Shown: positions 2,525-43,718 of the stretch, one piece after another
How positions within the stretch are numbered: position 1 is the first letter of the stretch
Layout of the letters: every line of letters starts with the position of its first letter
NCBI GenBank assembly: GCA_946547105.1
Contig: CAMNOV010000002.1
Location: 5,055 to 69,054 of the forward strand
Source: an uncultured Clostridia bacterium
GTDB lineage: Bacteria; Bacillota; Clostridia; Oscillospirales; Oscillospiraceae
DNA length: 64,000 nt
Direction: 5' to 3'
Notes under the pieces: model-generated
Seen by the model: the letters and a program-made list of their open reading frames with translations, nothing else
Database searches by the model: none
What the model was told of the DNA's origin: nothing
Program-made: the position numbers and the translations under genes

Positions 2525-2819
2525 AACACGTGCTGGGGTCGTATTGACCTGCGTATGCGGCGAATGGCTGCTGGTTTCGGCTGCCGCGCTGCGGGGCCTT
2601 TGCCCCTTCGTCACCGTCATCAACGAAAGCTCGGCCTTTCTGTGGAAGCGGCTGCAGAGCGGCACGGACGCGGAGGAACTGGAGCGCGCCGTGCGGGAGG
2701 AGTACGAGATCGAGGATCCGGAGACTGTCCGGAGCGTGATCGTGGCCTTTCTGCAGCAGATGCGGGAGATGAATTATCTCGAAGAGGCCGGGAAAGAGAC
2801 CGGCAAAGCAAATGATTGA
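2511..2819 (+). CDS. PqqD-family protein (RiPP recognition element-like peptide chaperone)
   Basis: 102 aa; RBS GGGAGGAaacgATG. The pattern '...GEWLLVS....VINESSAFLWKRLQSGTDAEELERAV.EEYEI.DPETVRSVIVAFLQQMREMNYL' matches the PqqD layout (beta strands followed by a winged helix). Confidence 0.75.
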   Translation: MERYKTRAGVVLTCVCGEWLLVSAAALRGLCPFVTVINESSAFLWKRLQSGTDAEELERAVREEYEIEDPETVRSVIVAFLQQMREMNYLEEAGKETGKAND

Positions 2820-4023
2820 CGAGACGAAGAAGCTTCTGCTGGACGTGCTTTCCTGTGCGATCCGTGGCAAACAGGCGCCGATTACAGATCAACTCAAGAA
2901 AAAACGCATGGCTCTTTTTCAGCTTGCGATGGAGCACCATGTGCTGCCGCTGGTCGTTGATACGCTGTACCATGGGGAAGAAGCAGACCCAACGATGCGC
3001 GGCATGGCCGGGCAGGTCCGGAGCCTTGTGATCGCCCAGGCACAGCGGACGGCGGATTTCCAGCTGCTGCTGCAGCGCTTCGGCCAAAAGGGTCTGTGGC
3101 CTGTCGTGGTCAAGGGCTTGGTCTGCCGGAGCCTCTATCCCGAGCCGGAGCTGCGGCCCTCCGTCGACGAAGATTTACTGATCCGTCCGGAGGACTTTTC
3201 CGTATACGACGCGGCCATGAAGGCCGCAGGCTTTCGCGTGGAGCAGGGCAATGAGGATGAGGATTACGAAATCGTCTATCTGCATCCGGAGAGCGACTTC
3301 TGCATCGAGCTGCACACCAGCCTGTTTCCTGAGGAATCCGAGGCCTACGGCGACTGTGCGCGTTATTTCGACGGCGCGATCGACCGCGCCGTCGATCTGA
3401 CGGTGGAAGGCGTTTCGCTGCGAACGCTTGCGCCGACGGATCATCTGCTGTTTCTGATCTGCCATGCCTACAAGCATCTGCTGCACGGAGGCGTGGGAAT
3501 CCGGCAGCTCTGCGACATGGAGCTGATGATCGAACGCTTTGGGAAAGATCTCGACTGGGGCTATATCCGCAAAAGCTGCGACGGGCTGAGCCTTTCGGTA
3601 TTTACAGCGGCTCTGTTTCGCATTGGGGAAAAGCATCTGGGTTTCGCGATGCCGGAGGCTTTCGTGGACATTGATGTGGATGAGAGCGCGCTGCTGGAGG
3701 ATATCCTCAGCGGCGGTCTGTACGGAGTCGTTGACGTCGACCGGGCACACAGCAGCACGATGACGCTGGAGGCGGTCTCGGCCGCCAGGGACGGGCGAAG
3801 GAGCAAAGGCGCGCTGCATTCGGTATTCCTGCCGCTGGAAGCGATGCGGGGAAACTATCCGTATCTGAGGAGCTGTCCCTGGCTGCTGCCGGCTGCCTGG
3901 GTGCAGCGGATCTTCCGCTATCTGGCGAGAAAAGACCGCTCCGATCCCGTCAACCCCCTCAGAAGCGTCCAGATCGCCCATGAGCGCATCGACCTGCTCA
4001 AGCAGTACCGCATCATTCGGTAA
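2812..4023 (+). CDS. uncharacterised nucleotidyltransferase family protein (NTP_transf_5-like)
   Basis: Overlaps the PqqD gene by 8 nt. 'VVVKGLVCRSLYPEPELRPSVDEDLLIRPEDF' fits the K-G-x-Y-P-x-R-x-D-x-D-L-L signature I associate with PF14907-type proteins found next to PqqD proteins. Confidence 0.6.
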   Translation: MIDETKKLLLDVLSCAIRGKQAPITDQLKKKRMALFQLAMEHHVLPLVVDTLYHGEEADPTMRGMAGQVRSLVIAQAQRTADFQLLLQRFGQKGLWPVVVKGLVCRSLYPEPELRPSVDEDLLIRPEDFSVYDAAMKAAGFRVEQGNEDEDYEIVYLHPESDFCIELHTSLFPEESEAYGDCARYFDGAIDRAVDLTVEGVSLRTLAPTDHLLFLICHAYKHLLHGGVGIRQLCDMELMIERFGKDLDWGYIRKSCDGLSLSVFTAALFRIGEKHLGFAMPEAFVDIDVDESALLEDILSGGLYGVVDVDRAHSSTMTLEAVSAARDGRRSKGALHSVFLPLEAMRGNYPYLRSCPWLLPAAWVQRIFRYLARKDRSDPVNPLRSVQIAHERIDLLKQYRIIR

Positions 4024-7703: not shown

Positions 7704-9185
7704 ATGGAAGAAAAAACCGGCATTTCCTCCTTCATGGAGCAGATTGACCTGTACAGTCTGATCCGCGATGTTTTCAAGAATCTGGGTTTCATCCTGCTGG
7801 CTGCGATCGCGGCTTCGATGATCGCGGATATCGTAGTCCGCGACAATTACCAGAACTCCTATACGACGACGGCGACCTTCGTCGTCACCAGCAAGAATTC
7901 CAGCAACTATGCATACAGCAATCTGAACGCGGCCTCTGCCATGGCCGACAGCTACAGCAACATCCTCAACAGCAGCCTGCTGCGAAAAAAAGTCTGCCAG
8001 GATCTGGGCGTCTCCAGCTTTGACGCCAAAGCCAGGGCGAGTGTGATCGCCGATACGAATCTGATGACTCTGAGCGTGACCTCCAGTACGCCGCAGAAGG
8101 CCTATCTGACGATCCGCTCGATCATGCGGACGATCAACGGCCTGACCGGCTATGTTTCCGAGAACATGGTCATGGAAGTGCTGCAGGATCCGCCGGTCCC
8201 CACCAAGCCGGATTCCTCCGTCTCCGTTACCCGGCAGACCCGCCGCGCTTTTCTGCTGACCGGCCTCGCCGTTACGCTTGTCTTCATGTATCTGTCCTAT
8301 CGGCGCGACACGGTCAAGAGCGAGGACGATCTGAAGGAAAAGCTGGACGCGGATTCTCTCGGCGTGCTGTACCACGACCCGGTCTATCACTCGGCAAGCG
8401 ACTTTTTCCGCCGCAGCAAGAGCAAGCACCTGGTCACCGACCTGAACGCCCGCTTCGAATATGTGGAGCGCTTCAAGAAGATCTCCGCCACGATCGCCGG
8501 CATCGCCCGCAAAAAGGGCGTCAAAACGATCCTTGTCACCAGCGTGCGTGAGCATGAGGGCAAATCCACCTTCTCGGCAAACCTCGCGCTGACGCTTGCC
8601 CGCCAGTCCGCCTCCGTTCTGCTGATCGACGGCGATATGCGCCGCCCGACGCTGAATAAGATCTTCCTCAAGCCGGGGGAGAAGCTTGACGGCAGCCTGG
8701 GCGATATGCTACAGGGCAAGGCCAGCATGACGAGCGTGATCTACAACAACAAGGATCTCGGGATTCAGATGCTTCTGAATGACAGAGATTACCCGAATTC
8801 CACGGATATCGTTTCCTCCTACTATATGGAGCGGCTGCTTGAGGTGGCGTCCAAGAGCTTTGACTATATCGTCATCGACTCCCCGCCGATGTCGATCATG
8901 GCGGACGCCGAGGTCCTGGCCGGACTTGCCGACCTGAGCATGCTCGTCGTCGGCTACGACAACGTCCCCGCTCCGGATCTGAATGACGCGATCGATTCGC
9001 TGCGCGACTGCAAGGCCGAGTTCATCGGCTGCGTGCTCAATAACGTGTACACGCTGCCCGGCGCGCACCGGACCGTCGGCGGATACGGCGGATACGGCGG
9101 TTACGGCCGCTACAGCCGTTACTCTCACTACCAGCGCTACGGAAAGTACGGCGGTTACGGTCATTACGGAGACAAATCCAAGTAA
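7704..9185 (+). CDS. fused Wzz/CpsC-like transmembrane modulator + CpsD-like BY tyrosine kinase (copy 1)
   Basis: N-terminal half has 2 TM helices of Wzz type. C-terminal half has Walker A 'EHEGKST', A' 'LLIDGDMRRP', B 'YIVIDSPP' and a Tyr tail 'GGYGGYGGYGRYSRYSHYQRYGKYGGYGHYG'. Confidence 0.85.
   Translation: MEEKTGISSFMEQIDLYSLIRDVFKNLGFILLAAIAASMIADIVVRDNYQNSYTTTATFVVTSKNSSNYAYSNLNAASAMADSYSNILNSSLLRKKVCQDLGVSSFDAKARASVIADTNLMTLSVTSSTPQKAYLTIRSIMRTINGLTGYVSENMVMEVLQDPPVPTKPDSSVSVTRQTRRAFLLTGLAVTLVFMYLSYRRDTVKSEDDLKEKLDADSLGVLYHDPVYHSASDFFRRSKSKHLVTDLNARFEYVERFKKISATIAGIARKKGVKTILVTSVREHEGKSTFSANLALTLARQSASVLLIDGDMRRPTLNKIFLKPGEKLDGSLGDMLQGKASMTSVIYNNKDLGIQMLLNDRDYPNSTDIVSSYYMERLLEVASKSFDYIVIDSPPMSIMADAEVLAGLADLSMLVVGYDNVPAPDLNDAIDSLRDCKAEFIGCVLNNVYTLPGAHRTVGGYGGYGGYGRYSRYSHYQRYGKYGGYGHYGDKSK
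9078..9167 (+). repeat. 10 consecutive 9-bp (X-X-Tyr) coding repeats forming the Tyr-cluster of kinase 1
   Basis: ggcggatac ggcggatac ggcggttac ggccgctac agccgttac tctcactac cagcgctac ggaaagtac ggcggttac ggtcattac. The first three units are nearly identical at the DNA level. Confidence 0.9.
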
Positions 9186-9208
9186 TACGATCCGGGAAGG
9201 ATACAGGT

Positions 9209-10681
9209 ATGAACGAAAACACGACCAATACAACAGCGAAGTCTGAAAACACAGAGCGTACAGAGCTGACCTCGCTGATCTGGGATATGCTGCACCGGCT
9301 GAAACGCTTCTGGTGGGTGATCGTGCTGCTGACGGCACTCGTCGCCGGGCTGTTCTATTTCCGCAGCAGCAGCTCCTATTCGCCGCGCTACGTGGCGGAG
9401 GCCACGGTCTCGGTTGAGATCGTCAACGGCGGCCAGTATGCCAACCAGAATACCGCCGAGCAGATGGGCAAGGTTTTCCCCTATATTTTAACCAGCGGTG
9501 CACTTTCCGACGTGATCTCCGCCGATCTGGGGACCAAGAGCGTGCCCGGCACGATCTCGGTATCCAGCATCCACGGTACGAATCTGCTGACGATCAGCGT
9601 TTCATCCGGCGATCCGAATATGGCTTATGCGATCTTGCAGTCGGTGCTGAGCAATTATCCGGAAGTGGCCAAGTTTGTCGTCGGCCAGACCTTCCTGTCC
9701 GTGATCGATGACAGCGGCGTTCCCACGGACTCCGGCCGCAACACCGTGCTGCGCGGCTCGCTGCGCCGCGGCGCGCTTGTCGGCTTTGTCCTCGGCGTCC
9801 TGCTGCTGCTGGTCTATACCATCAATACCCGCACCATTCGCAGCGAAATGGAGCTGCGCCGCCTGCTGAACATCCCCTGCCTCGGCTCTCTGCCGCTGGT
9901 CAAGCGCAAGCGCCGCACGAGCGAAGTCGACAGCCAGATCAACATGCTCCAGGACCGCAACTGCGACGACTATATCGAAGCGATGCGCCTGGTCCGCACC
10001 CGTCTGGAACGCCAGCTCGGGGACAAAAAAGTGATCATGGTCACGAGCTCCATCCCCGGCGAAGGCAAGTCGACAGTTGCGGCCAACCTGGCCATCTCCT
10101 TTGCCCAAAAGGGCAAGAAGGTCATTTTGATCGACTGCGACCTGCGCAATCCTTCTACGGCCGGTATCTTTCACATTGAAGGCGAGCATCCCGGCCTGGC
10201 TTCGATCCTGAAGGGCGAATCCCGCCCGGAGGAGTCGATGGTGCAGATCGTGTATCAGGACGAGCCCATCGGCCTGACGGTGCTCTGCGGCGGCGAGCAG
10301 CAGACGCGCGCGGTCGAGATCATGGGCGGCGAAGAGATGGGAAAGCTGCTCGACAAGCTGCGCTCTCTGGCAGACGTCATCATTCTGGACACGCCGCCTT
10401 CCGCCATGCTGGTCGACGCGATGTTCCTCGCCCGCCATGCAGACGGCGTGGTGTACGTGGTCATGAACGACTATGCCAAGCGCCGCTTCATCTTCAAGGG
10501 TATCGAAGAGCTGCAGGAGAACTCCGTTCCGGTACTCGGCTGCCTGCTCAACGGCGCCCACGGCCGCGTCGGCCGCTACGGTTACTATGGCCGCTACGGC
10601 AGCTACAGCCGCTATGGCTACGGCTACAGCTACAGCAGCAAAAACTATAAGAGCAAGGATTCGGAACACGCAAAGTCCTGA
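9209..10681 (+). CDS. fused Wzz/CpsC-like modulator + BY tyrosine kinase (copy 2)
   Basis: Same architecture as copy 1: Walker A 'PGEGKST', A' 'ILIDCDLRNP', B 'VIILDTPP' and tail 'GRVGRYGYYGRYGSYSRYGYGYSYSS'. Confidence 0.85.
   Translation: MNENTTNTTAKSENTERTELTSLIWDMLHRLKRFWWVIVLLTALVAGLFYFRSSSSYSPRYVAEATVSVEIVNGGQYANQNTAEQMGKVFPYILTSGALSDVISADLGTKSVPGTISVSSIHGTNLLTISVSSGDPNMAYAILQSVLSNYPEVAKFVVGQTFLSVIDDSGVPTDSGRNTVLRGSLRRGALVGFVLGVLLLLVYTINTRTIRSEMELRRLLNIPCLGSLPLVKRKRRTSEVDSQINMLQDRNCDDYIEAMRLVRTRLERQLGDKKVIMVTSSIPGEGKSTVAANLAISFAQKGKKVILIDCDLRNPSTAGIFHIEGEHPGLASILKGESRPEESMVQIVYQDEPIGLTVLCGGEQQTRAVEIMGGEEMGKLLDKLRSLADVIILDTPPSAMLVDAMFLARHADGVVYVVMNDYAKRRFIFKGIEELQENSVPVLGCLLNGAHGRVGRYGYYGRYGSYSRYGYGYSYSSKNYKSKDSEHAKS
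10562..10633 (+). repeat. 9-bp periodic Tyr-cluster coding repeat of kinase 2
   Basis: ggccgcgtc ggccgctac ggttactat ggccgctac ggcagctac agccgctat ggctacggc tacagctac. Confidence 0.85.
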
Positions 10682-10716
10682 GGCTTGCCCTTTCACTTCG
10701 CCAGGCAGGTAACGGC

Positions 10717-11583
10717 ATGAAAAAAAGAACTTGGATATGGATCCCGGCCGCGCTGCTGGCGTTAACGCTTCTCTGCCTGCTGTCCGTGTTCCTCTCGGCG
10801 CGGATCTTTACCGTGACCAAATACAGGATCTATGCCCCGCTGGAGCAGCCGATGCGGCTGGTGCAGCTGAGCGACCTGCACAATTCCGAATTTGGGGAGG
10901 ACAATGCCCGGCTCGTCAAGCGCATCCGCGCCCTGAAGCCGGACCTGATCCTGATGACGGGGGATATGATCAACAATGACGATCCAGATATCTCCGTCCT
11001 TCTGGAGCTGACGCAGTCTCTGAGCGGGATCGCCCCGGTCTACTGCTGCTACGGCAATCACGAGATGGCCTGGATGGAGCTCTTTGATACAGACCTGCGC
11101 CCCAGTCTGGAGCAGGCGGGTGCAACGGTGCTGGACGCGGAATACTGCGACCTTGACTGGAACGGGAACGCACTGCGCCTCGGCGGCTATGAGGGTTATT
11201 ACCGCGCCCCCGTGATGACCTCGCACGGCGACCGGGAGAAGGAAAAGCGGGAATTTGAATTCTTTCAGGAATTTGAACACACAGATCGTTATAAGATCCT
11301 TTTAAACCACATTCCCACCGCCTGGCTCGACTGGGAATACCGGGATGACTATAACGTCGATCTGGTGTTCTCCGGGCATTATCACGGCGGCCAGATCCGC
11401 CTGCCGCTGATCGGCGGGCTGTTTGCTCCGAATATCGGTTATTTCCCGCATTATACCAAGGGCCTTTACGCCAGCATCCCCGCCAAGGTCGTCCTTTCGG
11501 CCGGCCTCGGCTCGAATCGAAAGATCCCTCGCATCAACAATCCCGGAGAGATCGTCTGCGTTGATCTGATTCCGGAGAAATGA
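10717..11583 (+). CDS. membrane-anchored metallophosphoesterase (calcineurin-like)
   Basis: N-terminal TM segment, then the motifs 'LSDLHN', 'TGDMIN', 'GNHE' and 'GHYHGG'. Confidence 0.8.
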   Translation: MKKRTWIWIPAALLALTLLCLLSVFLSARIFTVTKYRIYAPLEQPMRLVQLSDLHNSEFGEDNARLVKRIRALKPDLILMTGDMINNDDPDISVLLELTQSLSGIAPVYCCYGNHEMAWMELFDTDLRPSLEQAGATVLDAEYCDLDWNGNALRLGGYEGYYRAPVMTSHGDREKEKREFEFFQEFEHTDRYKILLNHIPTAWLDWEYRDDYNVDLVFSGHYHGGQIRLPLIGGLFAPNIGYFPHYTKGLYASIPAKVVLSAGLGSNRKIPRINNPGEIVCVDLIPEK

Positions 11584-11595
11584 GGACTCCATCGC

Positions 11596-12207
11596 ATGCC
11601 GATTTACAAAAACGGGCTCAAGCGTGTGCTCGACTGTGCCATCGCTTTGCCTGTCCTGCTTGTGGCCGCGATCCCGATGGCCTTGATCGCAATCGCTATA
11701 AAGCTCGATTCTCCCGGACCGGTGGTTTTTCGCCAGCAGCGTCTTGGGAAGAACGGAAAAGTTTTTGACATGCTCAAGTTCCGCAGCATGTGCCTCAATG
11801 CCGAACATACCGGCAGCGGCGTTTACTCTGAAAAAGGCGACAAGCGCGTGACCCGCGTGGGGAGGCTCCTTCGGGCCACCAGCCTGGACGAGCTGCCGCA
11901 GCTGATCAACATTCTGCGCGGCGATATGTCGCTGATCGGGCCGCGTCCGCCGCTGACCTATCATCCCTGGCCGCTCGAGGTCTATACCCCGGAGCAGAGA
12001 AGGATGTTCGAAGTGCGGCCCGGCATCACCGGCTGGGCGCAGATCAACGGCCGCAAGGCTGTGGAGTGGCATCGCCGCATCGAGTTGAACGTCTGGTACG
12101 TCGACCACGTGTCGTTCCTGCTCGACGTCAAGATCTTTTTCCTGACGGTGCTCAAAGTCCTCTGCAATGAAAACAACGTCAATCAGGGCGTAACCCTAAA
12201 AAAATAA
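11596..12207 (+). CDS. small (PglC/EpsL-type) undecaprenyl-phosphate sugar-phosphate transferase, initiating enzyme
   Basis: 'KRVLD..IALP.L......[36 protein letters not shown]' and '[22 protein letters not shown]' are hallmark bacterial sugar transferase (PF02397) motifs. Confidence 0.9.
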
Positions 12208-12223
12208 AAGGAAGTTTGTCGTC

Positions 12224-13075
12224 ATGGCGCTGAAAATGATGTATATTACGAAGGATCCGGAGATTGCCCGCATCGCGGAAGAAGCGGGTGTGGATCGCAT
12301 CTGGGTGGATCTGGAGTATATTGGCAAGGCCTTGCGGCAGGGCGGTCTGGATACCGTCCAGTCTCATCATACCATGGAAGACATTAAAGTGATCCACGCG
12401 GCCATCAACCGCGCGGAGCTGCAGGTGCGGGTCAATCCGATCCATCAAGCCACCGCGGAATACAGTGATTCCCGGACGGAGATCGATGACGCCATCGCGG
12501 CCGGCGCCGACCGGCTGATGCTGCCGTATTTCAAAACCGTTGCAGAGGTCGAGACCTTTCTGGATCTGGTGGATGGGCGCGTGAGAAACAATCTTCTGCT
12601 CGAAACGCCGGAGGCGGTCGAGCGGATCGATGAGATCCTGGCCCTGCCCGGGATCGACGAGATCCATATCGGGCTCAACGATCTCAGCCTCGGCTACAAA
12701 AAGCCCTTCCTGTTTGACCTCCTGGCCGACGGAACGGTGGAGCGGCTCTGCCTCAAGTGCCGCGAAGCCGGCATCCCTTACGGCTTCGGCGGCGTGGCCT
12801 CTTTGGGACGAGGCCTGCTGCCCGCCGAGTATGTCATCCGCGAGCATTACCGCCTCGGCTCGACCCGCGTGATCCTCTCCCGCAGCTTCTGCAACCGGGA
12901 ACTGAACGCCGATCTGGACGAGGGCCGCATTGCCTTTACCTCTAGAATGCGTCAGATCCGCGCCTTTGAGCGCGAGTGCGAGCAGCACGCCGCCTTTTTC
13001 TGGAACAGCCGCAAGGAAGCCGAACGGGAGATCCGCCTGATCTCAGAGAAGCTGAGCAGGGGGGGACGGACTTGA
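12224..13075 (+). CDS. HpcH/HpaI aldolase / citrate-lyase-beta family protein
   Basis: 'AEEAGVDRIWVDLEYIGK', 'ADRLMLPYFKTVAEVE' and 'ETPEAVERIDEILALPGIDEIHIGLNDLS' match the TIM-barrel PEP/pyruvate-domain pattern of HpcH-like enzymes. Confidence 0.6.
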   Translation: MALKMMYITKDPEIARIAEEAGVDRIWVDLEYIGKALRQGGLDTVQSHHTMEDIKVIHAAINRAELQVRVNPIHQATAEYSDSRTEIDDAIAAGADRLMLPYFKTVAEVETFLDLVDGRVRNNLLLETPEAVERIDEILALPGIDEIHIGLNDLSLGYKKPFLFDLLADGTVERLCLKCREAGIPYGFGGVASLGRGLLPAEYVIREHYRLGSTRVILSRSFCNRELNADLDEGRIAFTSRMRQIRAFERECEQHAAFFWNSRKEAEREIRLISEKLSRGGRT

Positions 13076-13989
13076 GGCTGCTGATCTGCGGCGCCTGGCA
13101 GGGCGCCGGAGCGCATTTGGACGAGATCCGCGCCATGGGGCACGAGGTCGCGTTTCTGCCCCAGGAACGGGACGAGCTGCCGGTCGAAGCCGACTGGGTG
13201 GAAGGCGTGATCGGCAACGGCTTTTTTCTCTTTCACCCGATAGAAACCTTTCGCAATCTGAAATATATCCAGGTCATCAGCGCCGGACTGGACCGCGTCC
13301 CGGTGGACGAGGTGCAGCGGCGCGGTATTACGCTGAAAAACGCGCGCGGCGTTTACAGCGGCCCGATGGCGGAGCACGCCGTCTGGGCGGCGCTGACATT
13401 GTATCGCCGTCGCGCGTATTACATGAATAACCAGGCGGAGCACATCTGGAGCAAGCTCCGCGTGATCCCGGAACTGGCGGGGAAGACGGTCTGCGTTCTC
13501 GGCTGCGGCAGCGTGGGCACGGCCTGCGCCGAGCGCTTCGGCGGCATGGGCTGCCGCGTGATCGGCGTCAACCGCACGCCGCGCAGAGATCCCGCCTTTG
13601 AGAAGATCTTTTCCTTTGCCGAAACGTCAGACGCGTTGGGCATGGCTGATATTGTGGTCGTGACGCTGCCGCTGAATGACGAGACGCGCCATTTGATAAA
13701 TGAGGAACGTCTGTCGCAGATGAAAGACAGCGCCCTTCTGATCAATATCGCCCGCGGTCCGCTGGTGGATACGGATGCGCTGCTTGCGGCGCTGGACGTA
13801 CAGCTCGGCGGCGCGGCGCTGGACGTTTTTGAAACCGAACCCCTCCCGGCGGACAGTCCGCTCTGGGAGCATCCCAAACTCCTCCTCACCCCGCACAACA
13901 GCTTCATGGGCGAGCACAACGCCGAACGCCTGGATGCGGTGATCATGAGAAATCTATCGGATCAAGAGAAAAATGCTTTTTCAACCTGA
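13072..13989 (+). CDS. D-isomer-specific 2-hydroxyacid dehydrogenase family protein
   Basis: Start moved to in-frame TTG 13072 (RBS GGGGGAcggac), a 4-nt overlap with the upstream stop; the track ATG 12976 would overlap the upstream gene by 100 nt. 'GKTVCVLGCGSVGTA' is a Rossmann motif; 'LINIARG..VD' and 'LDVFETEPLP......LLLTPHNS' follow the family pattern. Confidence 0.8.
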   Translation: MRLLICGAWQGAGAHLDEIRAMGHEVAFLPQERDELPVEADWVEGVIGNGFFLFHPIETFRNLKYIQVISAGLDRVPVDEVQRRGITLKNARGVYSGPMAEHAVWAALTLYRRRAYYMNNQAEHIWSKLRVIPELAGKTVCVLGCGSVGTACAERFGGMGCRVIGVNRTPRRDPAFEKIFSFAETSDALGMADIVVVTLPLNDETRHLINEERLSQMKDSALLINIARGPLVDTDALLAALDVQLGGAALDVFETEPLPADSPLWEHPKLLLTPHNSFMGEHNAERLDAVIMRNLSDQEKNAFST

Positions 13990-14000
13990 AGGGGGATTCC

Positions 14001-15572
14001 ATGCAGTCAATAAAAGATCTTCTGGATCAGTATCCTCAATACCGGGAAAAACTGTATATCCGCGGCTTTCTCCTTTCAAAAGGTGAGGAAGACGAATCAG
14101 TATATCCCTATTACGGTGCATGGAAGCCCTTTTCAATCGGCAGCTATCGTCTGCTCGTACATCCGCTTCAGCATATCTGCATCCGTAATACTGGCTCCTA
14201 TAGTGTAGCCCTTGTCGGACATGCCATGGATCCTTTTGCCCTGGAGGCGAATGAAGCAGTGATTCTGGACGGCTGTCTGGAAGAACTTGAACGAGATGAG
14301 GCATCTTTCTGGAATCGTTTCAATCAGCTTACAGGAGTTTTTACTTGTTTCGTATTTCATGAAGATCGGGTTTGGATCATTGGCGATGCCAGCGGTATGC
14401 AGACTACATTTTATGCCGTACAAAACGGCAAACTATTTGTATCCTCCCATACCATGATGCTGGGCGAGCAGCTTGGACTGAAAAAAGATCCCTATATTGA
14501 TCGACTGATCCGATATCGTTTTTTCCCGCTTCTTGGAAATGCGCTACCAGGCGACCGGACGCAATTTGTCGGTCTTACTCGCGTCACGCCGAATATATGT
14601 ACTATTTTTGAAAATGGTGAAATCAGACGTCGGCGTTTTTTTACCCCTTATAGGATGCCAGAAAAATCGAAGGAAGAGCTGGCGAAAGAAGCTGGCGAGC
14701 TGATAAACCGTACGCTGGTACTGGTCGCTCAAAAATGGAAGAAGCCGGCGATCTCCTTGACCGGTGGATGTGACAGCAAAACGACATTAGCTTGCGCCAG
14801 AGGGGTGTACGATCGTTTTCAGTATTACAGCTACTCGTCCTCTCCGGCCGAGCAAGTTGACTGCGAAGCGGCAGGGATCATTTGCCAGGCACTTGGATTG
14901 GAGCATACTGTCTATTCAATTCCGAACACGTTGCCGGATCATGAAGTGCTTGAAGTCGTAGCCAGGATCCTCCGTTGGAACTGCGGAGATATCCTGGACA
15001 GCAACCCGAATGACGTCAGAAAGCGGATTGTGCTGGATGAGATCGACGATTTTGACGTTGAGGTCAAATCGTGGGCTTCAGAGATCGGCCGCGCTTATTA
15101 TTCCAAACGTTTTCACGGCCGCACAAAGTTTCCGGTGAAGCCCAGCGGCCGTGCCTGCACGACTTTGTATAAGTTTTTCCTCCATGACCGAAAGCTGGTC
15201 CGGGAAACTGACAAAGTGTTTGAAGGTTTTATCAGAGAGTATTATCAGGCTGCTGAGCAGGATCCGATCCCGTGGTTTGAACAGTTCTTTTGGGAATTCC
15301 GTGTACCCGCGTGGAATGGTCTTGTCATTACTGGTGAGCACCGATACTCCTCGGATATCACGATCCCTTACAACAATCGGTTACTGCTGACGATCCTGTT
15401 GAGCGTGCCGATCGAAGAGCGCATTACTGACGCACTGTATACGGAAATCAGAAAGCAGTTTCAGCCGAAGATTGATGCGGCCGGTGTTTCTGTGACAAAT
15501 CTTCACCATACTGAGCGAAGAGAAAAACTGGAGAATTTGTATTGGCTGCTCCATACTGCAATTCCATACTAG
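14001..15572 (+). CDS. asparagine-synthetase-like PP-loop (adenylating) protein lacking the N-terminal Cys nucleophile
   Basis: RBS AAGGGGGAttccATG. 'LTGVFTCFVFHEDRVWIIGDASGMQTTFY' resembles the AsnB GATase-domain core, but the protein starts MQSIK with no Cys2. 'ISLTGGCDSKT' is an SGGxDS-type PP-loop. Confidence 0.5.
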   Translation: MQSIKDLLDQYPQYREKLYIRGFLLSKGEEDESVYPYYGAWKPFSIGSYRLLVHPLQHICIRNTGSYSVALVGHAMDPFALEANEAVILDGCLEELERDEASFWNRFNQLTGVFTCFVFHEDRVWIIGDASGMQTTFYAVQNGKLFVSSHTMMLGEQLGLKKDPYIDRLIRYRFFPLLGNALPGDRTQFVGLTRVTPNICTIFENGEIRRRRFFTPYRMPEKSKEELAKEAGELINRTLVLVAQKWKKPAISLTGGCDSKTTLACARGVYDRFQYYSYSSSPAEQVDCEAAGIICQALGLEHTVYSIPNTLPDHEVLEVVARILRWNCGDILDSNPNDVRKRIVLDEIDDFDVEVKSWASEIGRAYYSKRFHGRTKFPVKPSGRACTTLYKFFLHDRKLVRETDKVFEGFIREYYQAAEQDPIPWFEQFFWEFRVPAWNGLVITGEHRYSSDITIPYNNRLLLTILLSVPIEERITDALYTEIRKQFQPKIDAAGVSVTNLHHTERREKLENLYWLLHTAIPY

Positions 15573-15594
15573 AAAACTGAGAGGGGACTGTTCA

Positions 15595-16578
15595 TTGCAG
15601 CTTTCATTTCTAATAAAAGAAAGAATTCATCTTTTTAATCAAAATATAAAAAAATATAATACTATCAATTACTGCGGATTTGCACCCTTATTATATGTGC
15701 GCTTTTGGGTTGATGAGATTTTTTCTTTCTTTTTCTTTGGCGCCAGCCCCGATGATTATTTTAGATATGAATTCTATAGAAAGTCTTTGTCTGAGCGGAA
15801 TAACTTCATAACGTTTTTAAAAAGCAAAAAGCTTATCAAAAAGTTTAATAGCGAGGACATCGTTCGAAAAATAAACAGTAAAGATGAATTAAATCAGTTG
15901 TTTTCTTGCTATTTACACCGAGAATGGTTGGATTTGGATTCAGCAAATAACGATGCTTTTTCTGATTTTTTATGCAGACATAAGAAGATTATTCTAAAAC
16001 CTAAAACTGGTTCCGGTGGAAAGGGTATTTTTGTCTTATCGCAAGAGGACGTTTCTATCCAAAGAAATGGACTTGAAGAGTATAGAGGATACATAGCGGA
16101 AGAACTTTTAAACCAGCATCAGGCTCTATCGAAAATTAATCCAAGTTCAGTTAATAGCATTAGAGTTATGACTTTTCGTGGAACTATTCTATCTGCTGTA
16201 TTAAAGGTTGGACGTTTAGGGTCAGTTGTAGATAATATGAGCTCTTCAGGGCTGTATGGTAATATAGACTTAGATTATGGAGTAACCAATTCGGTTTTCC
16301 ACGATATTAAATTAAATAACTATTATTACCATCCAGACACAAACGAGAAATTAATAGGACTAACTATTCCTCTGTGGAATGAAGTCAAACAAATTGTTGC
16401 TGAGGCTTCAAAATGTGTCCCAGACTTACAGTATTGCGGTTGGGATATAGCTGTTTTGCCAGATAAGGTAGCTATTATAGAAGTTAATGCTTCTCCAGGG
16501 CATGATTTGTCGATCCAGTCAACACTTCAACAAGGTATTTATAATAAAATACAACAAGAATTAAAGAAAAAGAGTTAA
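15595..16578 (+). CDS. TupA-like 'sugar-transfer associated' ATP-grasp protein
   Basis: TTG start with RBS GAGAGGGGA. 'ILKPKTGSGGKGIFVL', 'IAEELL.QH' and 'IRVMTF' fit the ATP-grasp fold, and the N-terminal region 'DDYFRYEFYRKS' is typical of the TupA-like family. Very AT-rich gene. Confidence 0.65.
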   Translation: MQLSFLIKERIHLFNQNIKKYNTINYCGFAPLLYVRFWVDEIFSFFFFGASPDDYFRYEFYRKSLSERNNFITFLKSKKLIKKFNSEDIVRKINSKDELNQLFSCYLHREWLDLDSANNDAFSDFLCRHKKIILKPKTGSGGKGIFVLSQEDVSIQRNGLEEYRGYIAEELLNQHQALSKINPSSVNSIRVMTFRGTILSAVLKVGRLGSVVDNMSSSGLYGNIDLDYGVTNSVFHDIKLNNYYYHPDTNEKLIGLTIPLWNEVKQIVAEASKCVPDLQYCGWDIAVLPDKVAIIEVNASPGHDLSIQSTLQQGIYNKIQQELKKKS

Positions 16579-16588
16579 CAGCATCAGA

Positions 16589-17719
16589 ATGAAGATCCTC
16601 TTTGTAGCCACGGTGCTCAGCCATATCTGCCAATTCCATCTGCCCTATCTGCGGATGCTGAAGGAGCAGGGGCATGAGATCCACGTGGCGGCTCATGATA
16701 ATTTGGCAGTAAAAAACGGCCTGCAGCTTCGCTATGCGGACAATCATATTGAAATTCCCTTTGAGCGTTCGCCCTTCGACCGCAGAAATATCAAGGCGTA
16801 TCGTCGGCTGAAAGAACTGATCGACGGGGGAAACTATGACCTCATCGTCTGCAATACGCCGGTGGGCGGCATTTTGACCCGTCTGGCGGCGAGGAAGGCG
16901 AGAAAACAGGGAACGAAGGTCGTTTATATCGCCCACGGCTTCCACTTCTTCCGGGGTGCACCGCGAAAGAACTGGCTGCTGTATTACCCGCTGGAAAAGC
17001 ATTTCGCCCGCCTTTGCGACATGGTGATCACGATCAACGAGGAAGATTATCAACTGGCGAAAAGCTGCGTCCCCGGGCGCGTGGAGCACATCCACGGCAT
17101 CGGCGTCGACGGAAACCGCTATCATCCGGCAAGTAAGGAAGAGCAGGGCGTTATGCGGCAGAAAGAGGGCCTGTCCGGGGAGGACTTTGTCGTCCTCTGT
17201 ACGGGCGAGCTCAACGAGAACAAAAATCAGAAAACGCTGATTGCCGCTGCGGCGATGCTGAAGGAGAGAATCCCTCATTTGAAGGTTCTTTTGGGCGGCA
17301 ACGGCCCCAAGGAGCAGGAGCTGAAAGCTCAGGTCCGGGAGCTCGGGCTGGAGGAGACGGTCCGGTTTCTCGGTTACCGCACTGACCTTGAGCGGGTTGT
17401 CCCGGCGGTCGATGTGGTCGTTTCCTGCAGCAGGCGCGAGGGCCTGCCTCTGAATATCGTCGAGGCAATGCTGTGTGAAAAACCGATCGTTGCATCGACT
17501 AATCGCGGGCACCGGGAACTTGTCAAAGACGGAGCCACCGGCTTTCTGCTTGCCCCGGATGACGCCGCCGGCTTTGCTGATCGGATTAAAAAGCTAAATG
17601 ATGATCAAGAACTGAGAAAAATGTTTGGCAGCAAGGGGTTAAGCAGAGCGCAGGCATATACAGTCAGCAGGGTTCAAAAAGAATTACAGATGATAATCGA
17701 TAACTGCGTACTATCTTAA
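16589..17719 (+). CDS. GT4-family glycosyltransferase
   Basis: 'MKILFVATV..H...F.LPYLRML.EQGHEIHV' N-domain and 'E(G)LPLNIVEAM.C.KPIV.S....RELV.DG.TGFL' C-domain carrying the EX7E region. Confidence 0.85.
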   Translation: MKILFVATVLSHICQFHLPYLRMLKEQGHEIHVAAHDNLAVKNGLQLRYADNHIEIPFERSPFDRRNIKAYRRLKELIDGGNYDLIVCNTPVGGILTRLAARKARKQGTKVVYIAHGFHFFRGAPRKNWLLYYPLEKHFARLCDMVITINEEDYQLAKSCVPGRVEHIHGIGVDGNRYHPASKEEQGVMRQKEGLSGEDFVVLCTGELNENKNQKTLIAAAAMLKERIPHLKVLLGGNGPKEQELKAQVRELGLEETVRFLGYRTDLERVVPAVDVVVSCSRREGLPLNIVEAMLCEKPIVASTNRGHRELVKDGATGFLLAPDDAAGFADRIKKLNDDQELRKMFGSKGLSRAQAYTVSRVQKELQMIIDNCVLS

Positions 17720-42719: not shown

Positions 42720-42761
42720 GCGCAGGTCATGAACCCACGATCAAATGAAAGGGGAGCGCCC

Positions 42762-43718
42762 ATGAAAAACGTATTAGTTCTCATACCGCTTACCGATGAA
42801 CAGAAGGCCAGGCTGGAGTCCATCGGCCCGGACTGCCGTTACCGTTATTCAAACGGCGCCGACGTCAGTACGGAAGACGTTCAAAGCGCCAACGTCATCA
42901 TCGGCTTTCCCATTCCGGCGATGATCAGAGCCTCGGACAAGCTTGAATTCCTGCAGCTGTCCTCCTCCGGCGCGGACGCCTATGTCAAGCCCGGCGTCCT
43001 CCGCCCCGGCACCGTCCTGTGCAGCGTCACCGGCGCCTATGGCCAGGCGGTGGGCGAGCACGCCTTCGCCATGACCTGGGAGCTGCTGAAAAAGCTGCAC
43101 CTGTACCGTGACGACCAGGCGATGGCACACTGGGGCGACCGCGGCATTGTGGGGACTCTGCGCGGTGCGACGGTCGTCGTGGTCGGCCTCGGCGATATCG
43201 GCTCGGAATACGCCCGCCTGGTAAAGGCGGTCGGCGCGAGAGTCATCGGCGTTAAGCGCCGTCCCTCGGCCTGCCCGGACTTTGTCGATGAGCTCTGCCT
43301 CACGGACGAGCTGGACCGCGTGCTGCCCGAGGCGGACGTTGTCTGCAGCATCCTGCCCGGCACGGCGAGCACCTACCATCTGTTTGACGCTGCGCGCTTT
43401 GCCAAAATGAAGCCATCCGCGATTTTCATCAACTGCGGACGCGGCACCGCACTGGACGCGGATGCGCTCTATGATGCCCTGGATCGAGGCGTGATCGCCG
43501 CCGCCGGTGCGGACGTCATGGAGATCGAGCCGTTTCCCGCCGAGCATCCGCTCTGGAAGCAGCCCAACATGGTCATCACGCCTCATATCTCCGGCGGCTT
43601 CCATCTGCCCGGCACGCTCGATCGCATCGTTGAGATCTGCCTTGCCAACTTCGAGGCCTGGCTCAAGGGCGGCGAGCTGCAAAACGTCATCGATTTCCAG
43701 ACCGGGTACAAGAAATAA
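42762..43718 (+). CDS. D-2-hydroxyacid dehydrogenase family protein
   Basis: Start at ATG 42762. 'GATVVVVGLGDIGSEYA', 'FINCGRG' and 'DVMEIEPFPAEHPLW....VITPHISG'. Confidence 0.8.
   Translation: MKNVLVLIPLTDEQKARLESIGPDCRYRYSNGADVSTEDVQSANVIIGFPIPAMIRASDKLEFLQLSSSGADAYVKPGVLRPGTVLCSVTGAYGQAVGEHAFAMTWELLKKLHLYRDDQAMAHWGDRGIVGTLRGATVVVVGLGDIGSEYARLVKAVGARVIGVKRRPSACPDFVDELCLTDELDRVLPEADVVCSILPGTASTYHLFDAARFAKMKPSAIFINCGRGTALDADALYDALDRGVIAAAGADVMEIEPFPAEHPLWKQPNMVITPHISGGFHLPGTLDRIVEICLANFEAWLKGGELQNVIDFQTGYKK

Follow-up and report, generated by a model that had tools for sequence, protein, structure and literature searches.

The 64,000 nt of DNA examined here (the window) come from contig CAMNOV010000002.1 of an uncultured Clostridia bacterium and carry a polysaccharide locus in which the gene for a small priming transferase is directly followed by genes for an HpcH-like TIM-barrel protein, a D-isomer-specific 2-hydroxyacid dehydrogenase, a Cys-less AsnB-like protein (AsnBL) and an ATP-grasp ligase. 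These four genes are a recurrent functional module, with a gene order found in dozens of independent loci, far above chance. The explanation favoured here, tentatively and at a little under an even chance, is that the cassette tailors the priming (reducing-end) sugar of a Wzy- or ABC (ATP-binding cassette)-type surface polysaccharide by way of a pyruvate-derived branch, its reduction and its amidation.

The cassette is part of a run of six closely spaced genes on the + strand (11596-17719), separated by intergenic gaps of 16, -4, 11, 22 and 10 nt. The run opens with a small monotopic phosphoglycosyl transferase of the PglC type (203 amino acids (aa), 11596..12207; PF02397, 222 bits), followed by the HpcH-like protein (P0002, 12224..13075), the dehydrogenase (P0003, 305 aa from a TTG start, 13072..13989), AsnBL (P0001, 523 aa, 14001..15572), the ATP-grasp ligase (P0004, 327 aa, 15595..16578) and a GT4 glycosyltransferase with a PF13477 N-terminal domain, assigned by Pfam (16589..17719). 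A preliminary description of this DNA had listed four consecutive genes after the initiating transferase, and all four open reading frames are present on the + strand. It had also noticed a 4 nt overlap between the first two of them. The longest reading frame of the dehydrogenase begins at 12976, and the likely start is the TTG at 13072, with a G-rich Shine-Dalgarno sequence ahead of it; this TTG overlaps the TGA stop of the HpcH-like gene as TTGA, and in a sister strain the gene caller places the same overlap. Shine-Dalgarno sequences also precede the starts of AsnBL (14001) and the ATP-grasp gene (15595). The polysaccharide locus occupies about 37 kb of the window and belongs to a 1.9-Mb Clostridia metagenome-assembled genome (MAG) that is 86% complete; the closest named homologues are found in MAGs of Oscillospiraceae and Ruminococcaceae.

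Gene context was compared in two sets of loci. The first was centred on the HpcH-like gene and comprised 80 metagenome loci (52-71% identity). A priming transferase adjoins the HpcH-like gene in 60 of the 80, and a dehydrogenase lies near it in 43 of the 61 loci with enough downstream DNA. AsnBL and ATPgrasp_ST genes are less frequent neighbours, being found in six and four, respectively, of the 37 loci with enough downstream DNA for these genes. A long CapD/PglF-type dehydratase is directly upstream of the HpcH-like gene in 19/80 loci; where the upstream DNA extends for at least 4 kb, the figure is 11 of 32. A DegT aminotransferase, the type of enzyme that normally consumes a 4-keto sugar, is encoded anywhere in the locus in only three of the 80. 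In some loci an Acyl_transf_3 gene separates the HpcH-like gene from the dehydrogenase gene. The gene that precedes the dehydrogenase in loci L028 and L031 does not belong to the HpcH-like family (hhalign probability 0.15%), so that the aldolase-like partner is either replaceable or located elsewhere. A second architecture lacks the dehydrogenase and has the order CapD, HpcH-like gene, pyridoxal phosphate-dependent decarboxylase (Orn_Arg_deC_N), transferase and class IV aminotransferase (L094-L096, L113, L115, L116, L118, L121, L122 and L126; e.g., L096:7903-13706). With these enzymes, the predicted 2-oxo acid would end up as a branch that bears an amine.

The second set was centred on AsnBL and comprised 32 genome loci with homologues 23-70% identical to it. 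Several of these loci have little upstream DNA, and for that reason show no partner genes. The HpcH-like gene is present in 19 of the 32 and the dehydrogenase in 21, the usual order being transferase, HpcH-like gene, dehydrogenase, AsnBL. A PF13477-type GT4 gene comes after AsnBL or the ATP-grasp gene in 23 loci and is the conserved gene that closes the cassette, while an ATPgrasp_ST gene is found beside AsnBL in 12 and is an optional insert. Three further AsnBL homologues, with just 27-31% identity to P0001, all have a dehydrogenase alongside, and one of these, in locus L140, has the full core order of CapD (625 aa), transferase, HpcH-like gene, dehydrogenase, AsnBL, GT4. The coupling of AsnBL to the dehydrogenase therefore spans the whole family.

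A separate, proteobacterial branch of the HpcH-like family (37-40% identity to P0002) is represented by five loci (L012, L131, L132, L137 and L138), Rhodobacterales among them. In all five, a canonical glutamine-dependent AsnB (605-613 aa) is directly 5′ of the HpcH-like gene and overlaps it, so the pairing of an aldolase-like protein with an amidotransferase holds across phyla and with two AsnB lineages. None of the five has a dehydrogenase. Four of the five AsnB-HpcH pairs are within nonulosonic-acid loci (NeuB, NeuC and CMP-transferase), and a 490-aa DegT protein with a faint CBS match is often ahead of the pair.

The HpcH-like protein matches PF03328 over residues 9-184 with 42.2 bits, against a Pfam cut-off of 25. 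Its AlphaFold model is of high quality (predicted local distance difference test (pLDDT) 91.7), and Foldseek matches it to pyruvate kinase, HpcH/HpaI aldolases, YfaU, and malyl- and citramalyl-CoA lyases, all with E values around 1e-9 and template modelling (TM) scores of 0.55-0.69. Eight residues are invariant across homologues (D29, E31, K35, R38, R69, E127, D153 and R210). Of these, E127 and D153, the metal-binding Glu and Asp, correspond in alignment to the ET-EA and G-x-x-D-L motifs of 7nr1, and the matching motifs of the protein are ETPEA and GLNDL, with invariant acidic residues. The TIM-barrel fold and the conserved acidic residues of the ETxEA and G-x-N-D-L motifs are shared with the class II pyruvate aldolases of the HpcH/HpaI type (HpaI, YfaU/RhmA, GarL). 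In contrast to these catabolic enzymes, the protein has an extra C-terminal helical hairpin (residues 231-280), scores just 42 bits with Pfam, and is encoded in glycan loci. No characterised aldolase equivalog (HpaI, GarL or RhmA) was reached in NCBIfam, where scores were below 20 bits against cut-offs above 360. From its modelled fold and motifs it can be said to be a metal-dependent enzyme binding pyruvate or phosphoenolpyruvate (PEP); the label 'aldolase' is one that we infer. The family is large, with more than 7,900 clusters at 90% identity matching P0002, and comes from gut, rumen and marine bacteria.

The identification of the second gene as a 2-hydroxyacid dehydrogenase is well founded (PF02826, 182 bits; PF00389, 35 bits); the NCBIfam D-2-hydroxyacid dehydrogenase model gives 219 bits, which is under its cut-off. 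The sequence contains the motifs IARG, FETEP and TPHNS, which we take to hold the Arg, Glu and His catalytic residues of D-2-hydroxyacid dehydrogenases, and the enzyme is predicted from its family to reduce a 2-oxo acid to a 2-hydroxy acid. A second paralogue (329 aa, 42729-43718) follows an M29 peptidase gene in high-GC DNA immediately beyond the glycan locus.

AsnBL was described at the outset as a Cys-less AsnB-like protein with a PP-loop, and this holds in its wider family. The N-terminus reads MQSIKD, with no Cys at position 2, and the first strand of the structural model starts at residue 23. An alignment of 28 homologues (50-76% identity) shows variable N-termini with no conserved N-terminal Cys in any of them, and an invariant PP-loop (SLTGGCDSKT in P0001), in which S252, T254, G255, G256, C257, D258 and S259 are the same throughout. 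No Pfam model, PF00733 included, matches at an E value of 0.01, and NCBIfam TIGR01536 (asn_synth_AEB) gives 30.5 bits against a cut-off of 267. Searches of PDB sequences with P0001, either singly or as a profile, returned marginal PP-loop matches only, so that structure prediction was needed to place the protein. The AlphaFold model (pLDDT 84.7, predicted TM score 0.89) is matched by Foldseek to beta-lactam synthetase, carbapenam synthetase, TsnB9 (a hydroxyamidotransferase) and asparagine synthetases, with E values of 1e-15 to 1e-9 and alignments that cover both domains (about 540-600 columns). By its modelled fold, AsnBL is a Cys-less member of the AsnB superfamily. As the fold and PP-loop are kept and the Cys is missing, it is expected to adenylate a carboxylate without canonical glutamine hydrolysis, and the predicted outcome is that the carboxylate of the sugar branch becomes an amide with ammonia or another amine.

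The closest structural parallels are the beta-lactam and carbapenam synthetases (PDB 1jgt, 1mbz, 1q15), which match over both domains with E values of 1e-15 to 1e-14. These are also AsnB homologues without an N-terminal Cys, in which the PP-loop adenylates a carboxylate for amide formation. The likeness is one of fold, with 14-17% sequence identity, and AsnBL differs in belonging to a glycan locus; the synthetases close a lactam inside a small molecule, whereas no amine is predicted on the AsnBL substrate. A functional parallel is provided by the glutamine-dependent AsnB-type sugar amidotransferases of O-antigen loci, presumably including WbpS and WbtH, and by the canonical AsnB enzymes encoded beside HpcH-like genes; these use ATP to convert a sugar carboxylate to a carboxamide in a polysaccharide locus, often beside a GT4 gene. 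Unlike AsnBL, they keep the Cys and are recognised by the Pfam models GATase and Asn_synthase. The AsnBL family comprises 1706 clusters at 50% identity with E values up to 1e-3, and 709 with E values up to 1e-10. Its members occur in Bacillota and Bacteroidota, with more distant homologues in Proteobacteria and haloarchaea, and always in glycan loci.

A plasmid search gave three informative annotated contexts and no characterised homologue. The Escherichia coli IncF plasmid pCE1537-B (L013, NZ_MT162140.1) carries a group 2/3-type capsule locus (7945-12389) with a gene for a 781-aa 'asparagine synthase-related protein', the C-terminal part of which shows 24% identity with P0001; this gene is flanked by wecB-wecC and the gene for a 699-aa GT4. 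A Ruminococcus locus (L018:10001-13200) has two tandem AsnBL paralogues, 52% and 36% identical to P0001.

The fourth gene had been described as a TupA-like ATP-grasp, an assignment that should be changed. The protein belongs to PF14397 (ATPgrasp_ST), with 150.6 bits over residues 77-321 against a gathering threshold of 31.4, and shows no PF14305 (TupA) match at an E value of 0.01; true TupA-like genes are present separately in related loci. A search of PDB sequences with P0004 found no match. In the window the gene is flanked by AsnBL and the GT4 gene, and its product is predicted from the family to be a carboxylate-amine ligase of uncertain substrate. A link to uronic acids is one possibility. 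An Oscillospiraceae locus (L015:7756-13569) has four ATPgrasp_ST paralogues around AsnBL, with a UDP-sugar dehydrogenase gene alongside.

The PglC-type protein has the catalytic domain only, aligning to just the C-terminal catalytic part of the NCBIfam large-transferase models, and is predicted to prime the glycan on undecaprenyl phosphate. The PF13477-type GT4 is likely to be the transferase that works second, with the modified priming sugar as its acceptor.

The module is also a mosaic. GC content is 0.575 for the priming transferase gene, 0.60 for the HpcH-like gene and 0.61 for the dehydrogenase, then 0.48 for AsnBL, 0.33 for the ATP-grasp gene and 0.55 for the GT4 gene. At 83-87% nucleotide identity, the window and the sister strain (L133-L136) are syntenic as far as position 13955, and synteny resumes at 16589. 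The blastn blocks cover 11511-13955 (86.5%) and 16589-17551 (81.8%), with none in between, so marking an exchangeable segment (13956..16588, no strand) that holds AsnBL and the ATP-grasp gene between conserved flanks. Protein identities to the sister strain follow the same pattern (HpcH-like protein 93%, dehydrogenase 82%, GT4 78%, AsnBL 32%), and its syntenic locus has no ATP-grasp gene and no metallophosphoesterase gene. The AsnBL slot is an exchangeable allele within a conserved frame. The idea of a single module is upheld by the recurrent gene order, and needs qualifying in that AsnBL (48% GC) and the ATP-grasp gene (33% GC) occupy an exchangeable slot. Together with the tandem AsnBL paralogues and the four ATP-grasp paralogues mentioned above, this exchangeable slot suggests that the amide cap differs among strains.

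The recurrent partner genes indicate what the HpcH-like enzyme is likely to produce. The dehydrogenase, the class IV aminotransferase with the decarboxylase, and the AsnB types all have 2-oxo acids, alpha-amino acids or carboxylates as substrates, and the HpcH-like product should therefore carry a pyruvate- or PEP-derived 2-oxo acid. Because most cassettes have no ligase, the simplest course would be for the HpcH-like enzyme itself to attach this acid to the carrier, through a C-C bond. A 4,6-dehydratase is often adjacent and the usual aminotransferase is missing, which argues for a 4-keto-6-deoxy-N-acetylhexosamine (HexNAc) as the electrophile. The partner genes also bear out the earlier view that the chemistry of the locus centres on a 2-oxo or 2-hydroxy acid and on ATP-dependent amide formation.

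In the favoured pathway, a PglF/CapD-type dehydratase, encoded on contig C38 in this genome, would produce UDP-2-acetamido-2,6-dideoxy-hex-4-ulose. The HpcH-like enzyme would then add pyruvate enolate (or a PEP-derived C3 unit) to the keto sugar, giving a C-branched sugar with a 2-oxo acid; the D-2-hydroxyacid dehydrogenase would reduce the 2-oxo group of the branch, and AsnBL would adenylate the carboxylate by means of its PP-loop and turn it into an amide, the nitrogen coming from free ammonia or another amine and not from glutamine. The small transferase would move the sugar phosphate onto undecaprenyl phosphate, and the PF13477-type GT4 would extend it. Where present, the ATPgrasp_ST enzyme might add or replace an amide-linked amino acid or amine, on either the branch carboxylate or a uronic acid. 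The gene structures, folds, motifs and conserved gene order beneath this scheme are direct observations, and from them we infer the donor, the acceptor sugar, the order of the steps and the amine. The first steps resemble the PglF-PglE-PglD-PglC bacillosamine pathway, which likewise begins with a 4,6-dehydratase anchored in the membrane and a small transferase of the PglC type; in place of the aminotransferase and acetyltransferase of that pathway, the cassette has the HpcH-like enzyme and the dehydrogenase.

A sugar of the expected kind is known. Shewanellose, or 2-acetamido-2,6-dideoxy-4-C-(3′-carboxamide-2′,2′-dihydroxypropyl)-galactose, accompanies 8-epilegionaminic acid in the O-polysaccharide of Shewanella putrefaciens A6 (PMC4052302). 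Its 6-deoxy-HexNAc carries at C-4 a branch of three carbons with a terminal carboxamide, the skeleton that would be expected if a 4,6-dehydratase, a pyruvate aldolase and an amidotransferase of the AsnB type acted together. Its occurrence with a legionaminic-type acid is paralleled by the nonulosonic-acid setting of four of the five proteobacterial AsnB-HpcH pairs. Both the pairing of AsnB with HpcH in Proteobacteria and the architecture with a decarboxylase and an aminotransferase lend the analogy independent support. By this analogy the five proteobacterial loci are candidate shewanellose-type loci, with a predicted product that is a 6-deoxy-HexNAc carrying CH2-C(OH)2-CONH2 as its C-4 branch. 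Shewanellose keeps the 2′-oxo group as a hydrate, whereas the cassette in the window adds a 2-hydroxyacid dehydrogenase, the Cys-less AsnBL and, in some loci, the ATP-grasp ligase. The Firmicute cassette would then make the 2′-hydroxy analogue, amidated without glutamine. In short, a direct bond probably links the 2-oxo acid to a 4-keto-6-deoxy-HexNAc, with reduction and amidation to follow and a reduced analogue of shewanellose as the outcome. No paper on the biosynthesis of shewanellose was found in the literature searched, nor any on the pathway of the cassette or the role of the HpcH-like family.

Several observations weigh against this pathway. A CapD gene is not adjacent to the cassette in the window, nor in about two-thirds of the loci with enough upstream DNA. 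The only long CapD/PglF-type UDP-HexNAc 4,6-dehydratase of the genome (711 aa; contig C38, L049:11019-13154, minus strand) is an orphan that adjoins recJ, outside any glycan locus. The cassette was found in nine of 248 good genomes sampled from the same order, and a long CapD is encoded in each of the 11 carriers that were checked. This co-occurrence is weak support for the keto-sugar route, because a PF02719 match of any length is present in 139 of the 248 sampled genomes (56%) and the genomes are related. The HpcH-like fold is as near to pyruvate kinase and the CoA-ester lyases as it is to class II aldolases, so aldolase chemistry is not established, and the reaction might depend on PEP. Among homologues, the invariant E31 of the D-x-E motif is followed by Y, F, H, V, T or K, at a position that in HpaI presumably holds the catalytic His. 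A UDP-sugar 6-dehydrogenase gene lies within 10 kb in eight of the 32 AsnBL loci, and abuts AsnBL or the ATP-grasp gene in three of these (L015, L026 and L034). Considering these loci and the wecB/wecC context in pCE1537-B, some members of the AsnBL family may amidate uronic acids.

The preliminary description had suggested that a 2-hydroxy acid is made and then attached separately, and a rather unlikely alternative of this kind is that the aldolase and dehydrogenase supply a soluble 2-hydroxy acid (glycerate or a 2,4-dihydroxy acid), which AsnBL or the ATP-grasp enzyme ligates to an amino sugar or to the polymer. The enzyme families would be suitable, in that 4-hydroxy-2-oxo acids are products of HpcH-type aldolases and are reduced by 2-hydroxyacid dehydrogenases, and two types of ATP-dependent ligase are adjacent. 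A similar route is reported from Neisseria, where the ATP-grasp domain of PglB2 is said to make a glyceramido-acetamido-trideoxyhexose, and the cassette is tied to a PglC-type priming transferase, as in Neisseria. However, with AsnBL and ATP-grasp genes as rare as they are near HpcH-like genes, most HpcH/dehydrogenase loci would have no attachment enzyme, and a separate attachment step is not supported. The DegT enzyme needed for an amino-sugar acceptor is likewise missing from all but three of the 80 loci, and the proteobacterial partner is a glutamine-dependent amidotransferase, which makes carboxamides and not N-acyl links.

It is also improbable that the cassette consists of two unrelated units, with AsnBL and the ATP-grasp enzyme amidating a uronic acid (to a uronamide or amino-acid amide) independently of the HpcH-like/dehydrogenase pair, which would serve the priming sugar in some other way. 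The breaks in GC content and in similarity fall exactly at the dehydrogenase/AsnBL junction, as such a division would predict, and the UDP-sugar dehydrogenase genes near AsnBL, as well as the E. coli plasmid with its wecB, wecC, AsnB-related and GT4 genes, are consistent with it. A UDP-sugar dehydrogenase gene is also present in this genome, next to a DegT gene on contig C3. On the other hand, AsnBL stays beside the dehydrogenase in homologues as distant as 27-31% identity and in both divergent alleles of the species. No uronic-acid gene was found within the glycan locus of the window, and in several loci the UDP-sugar dehydrogenase is grouped with an epimerase and a TupA-like ligase in a triad of its own. 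Amidation of uronic acids as a separate process is genuinely backed by a minority of loci (L015, L026, L034 and the E. coli plasmid) and may well hold for the ATP-grasp enzyme, but leaves the place of AsnBL after the dehydrogenase throughout the family unexplained.

Finally, a polyol-phosphate route like that of Gtp3/Gtp1 in pneumococcal types 23F and 15, in which the TIM barrel would be a phosphotransferase and the dehydrogenase a ketose reductase making glycerol-2-phosphate or similar for activation with cytidine diphosphate and transfer by LicD, is highly improbable: pyruvate kinase is a top fold match of the HpcH-like protein, the locus in the window has three LicD genes and a cytidylyltransferase fusion, and a glycerol-2-phosphate gene set (gtp1-3 and wchX) is known (PMC1391919), but no homologue of the window's cytidylyltransferase or of an IspD-HMGL fusion was found in the 80 HpcH loci, many cassettes (e.g., L001) have neither LicD nor a cytidylyltransferase, and a carboxylic acid would suit both the exchange of the dehydrogenase for an aminotransferase and decarboxylase and the pairing with AsnB, as a polyol phosphate would not.

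The genes 5′ of the cassette in the window encode an ABC exporter, CpsB, two fused Wzz/BY-kinases (bacterial tyrosine kinases) and a metallophosphoesterase. The last of these is YaeI-like (10717-11583), sits between the second BY-kinase gene and the priming transferase gene, and is gone from the syntenic sister strain, where a 23-aa remnant matches; a homologue comes after the AsnBL-GT4 pair in an Erysipelotrichaceae locus (L003). An NTP_transf_5 (PF14907) gene at 2812-4023 recurs at one edge of glycan loci on unrelated contigs (L001, L003, L133 and L140), sometimes accompanied by a PqqD-like gene.

A broader proposal, on the doubtful side, is that a class II aldolase-type enzyme builds C-branched amino-sugar acids of the shewanellose family on a 4-keto nucleotide-linked or lipid-linked priming sugar, and that a Cys-less AsnB-fold family caps the branch with differing amines, the 32%-identical alleles and the optional ATP-grasp ligase together acting as an antigenic-variation switch in gut and rumen bacteria. 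The HpcH-like family stands at the first committed step of surface-glycan assembly and has thousands of members. If the favoured pathway is true, it would give pyruvate-branched sugars, shewanellose among them, their first biosynthetic route, and AsnBL would represent a new AsnB-fold family of amide-forming enzymes, of about 700 clusters at 50% identity (E values up to 1e-10). It would mend the automatic annotations 'aldolase', '2-keto-3-deoxy-L-rhamnonate aldolase' and 'hypothetical protein' now attached to these genes, and would explain variation in the reducing-end sugar among the polysaccharides of closely related strains.

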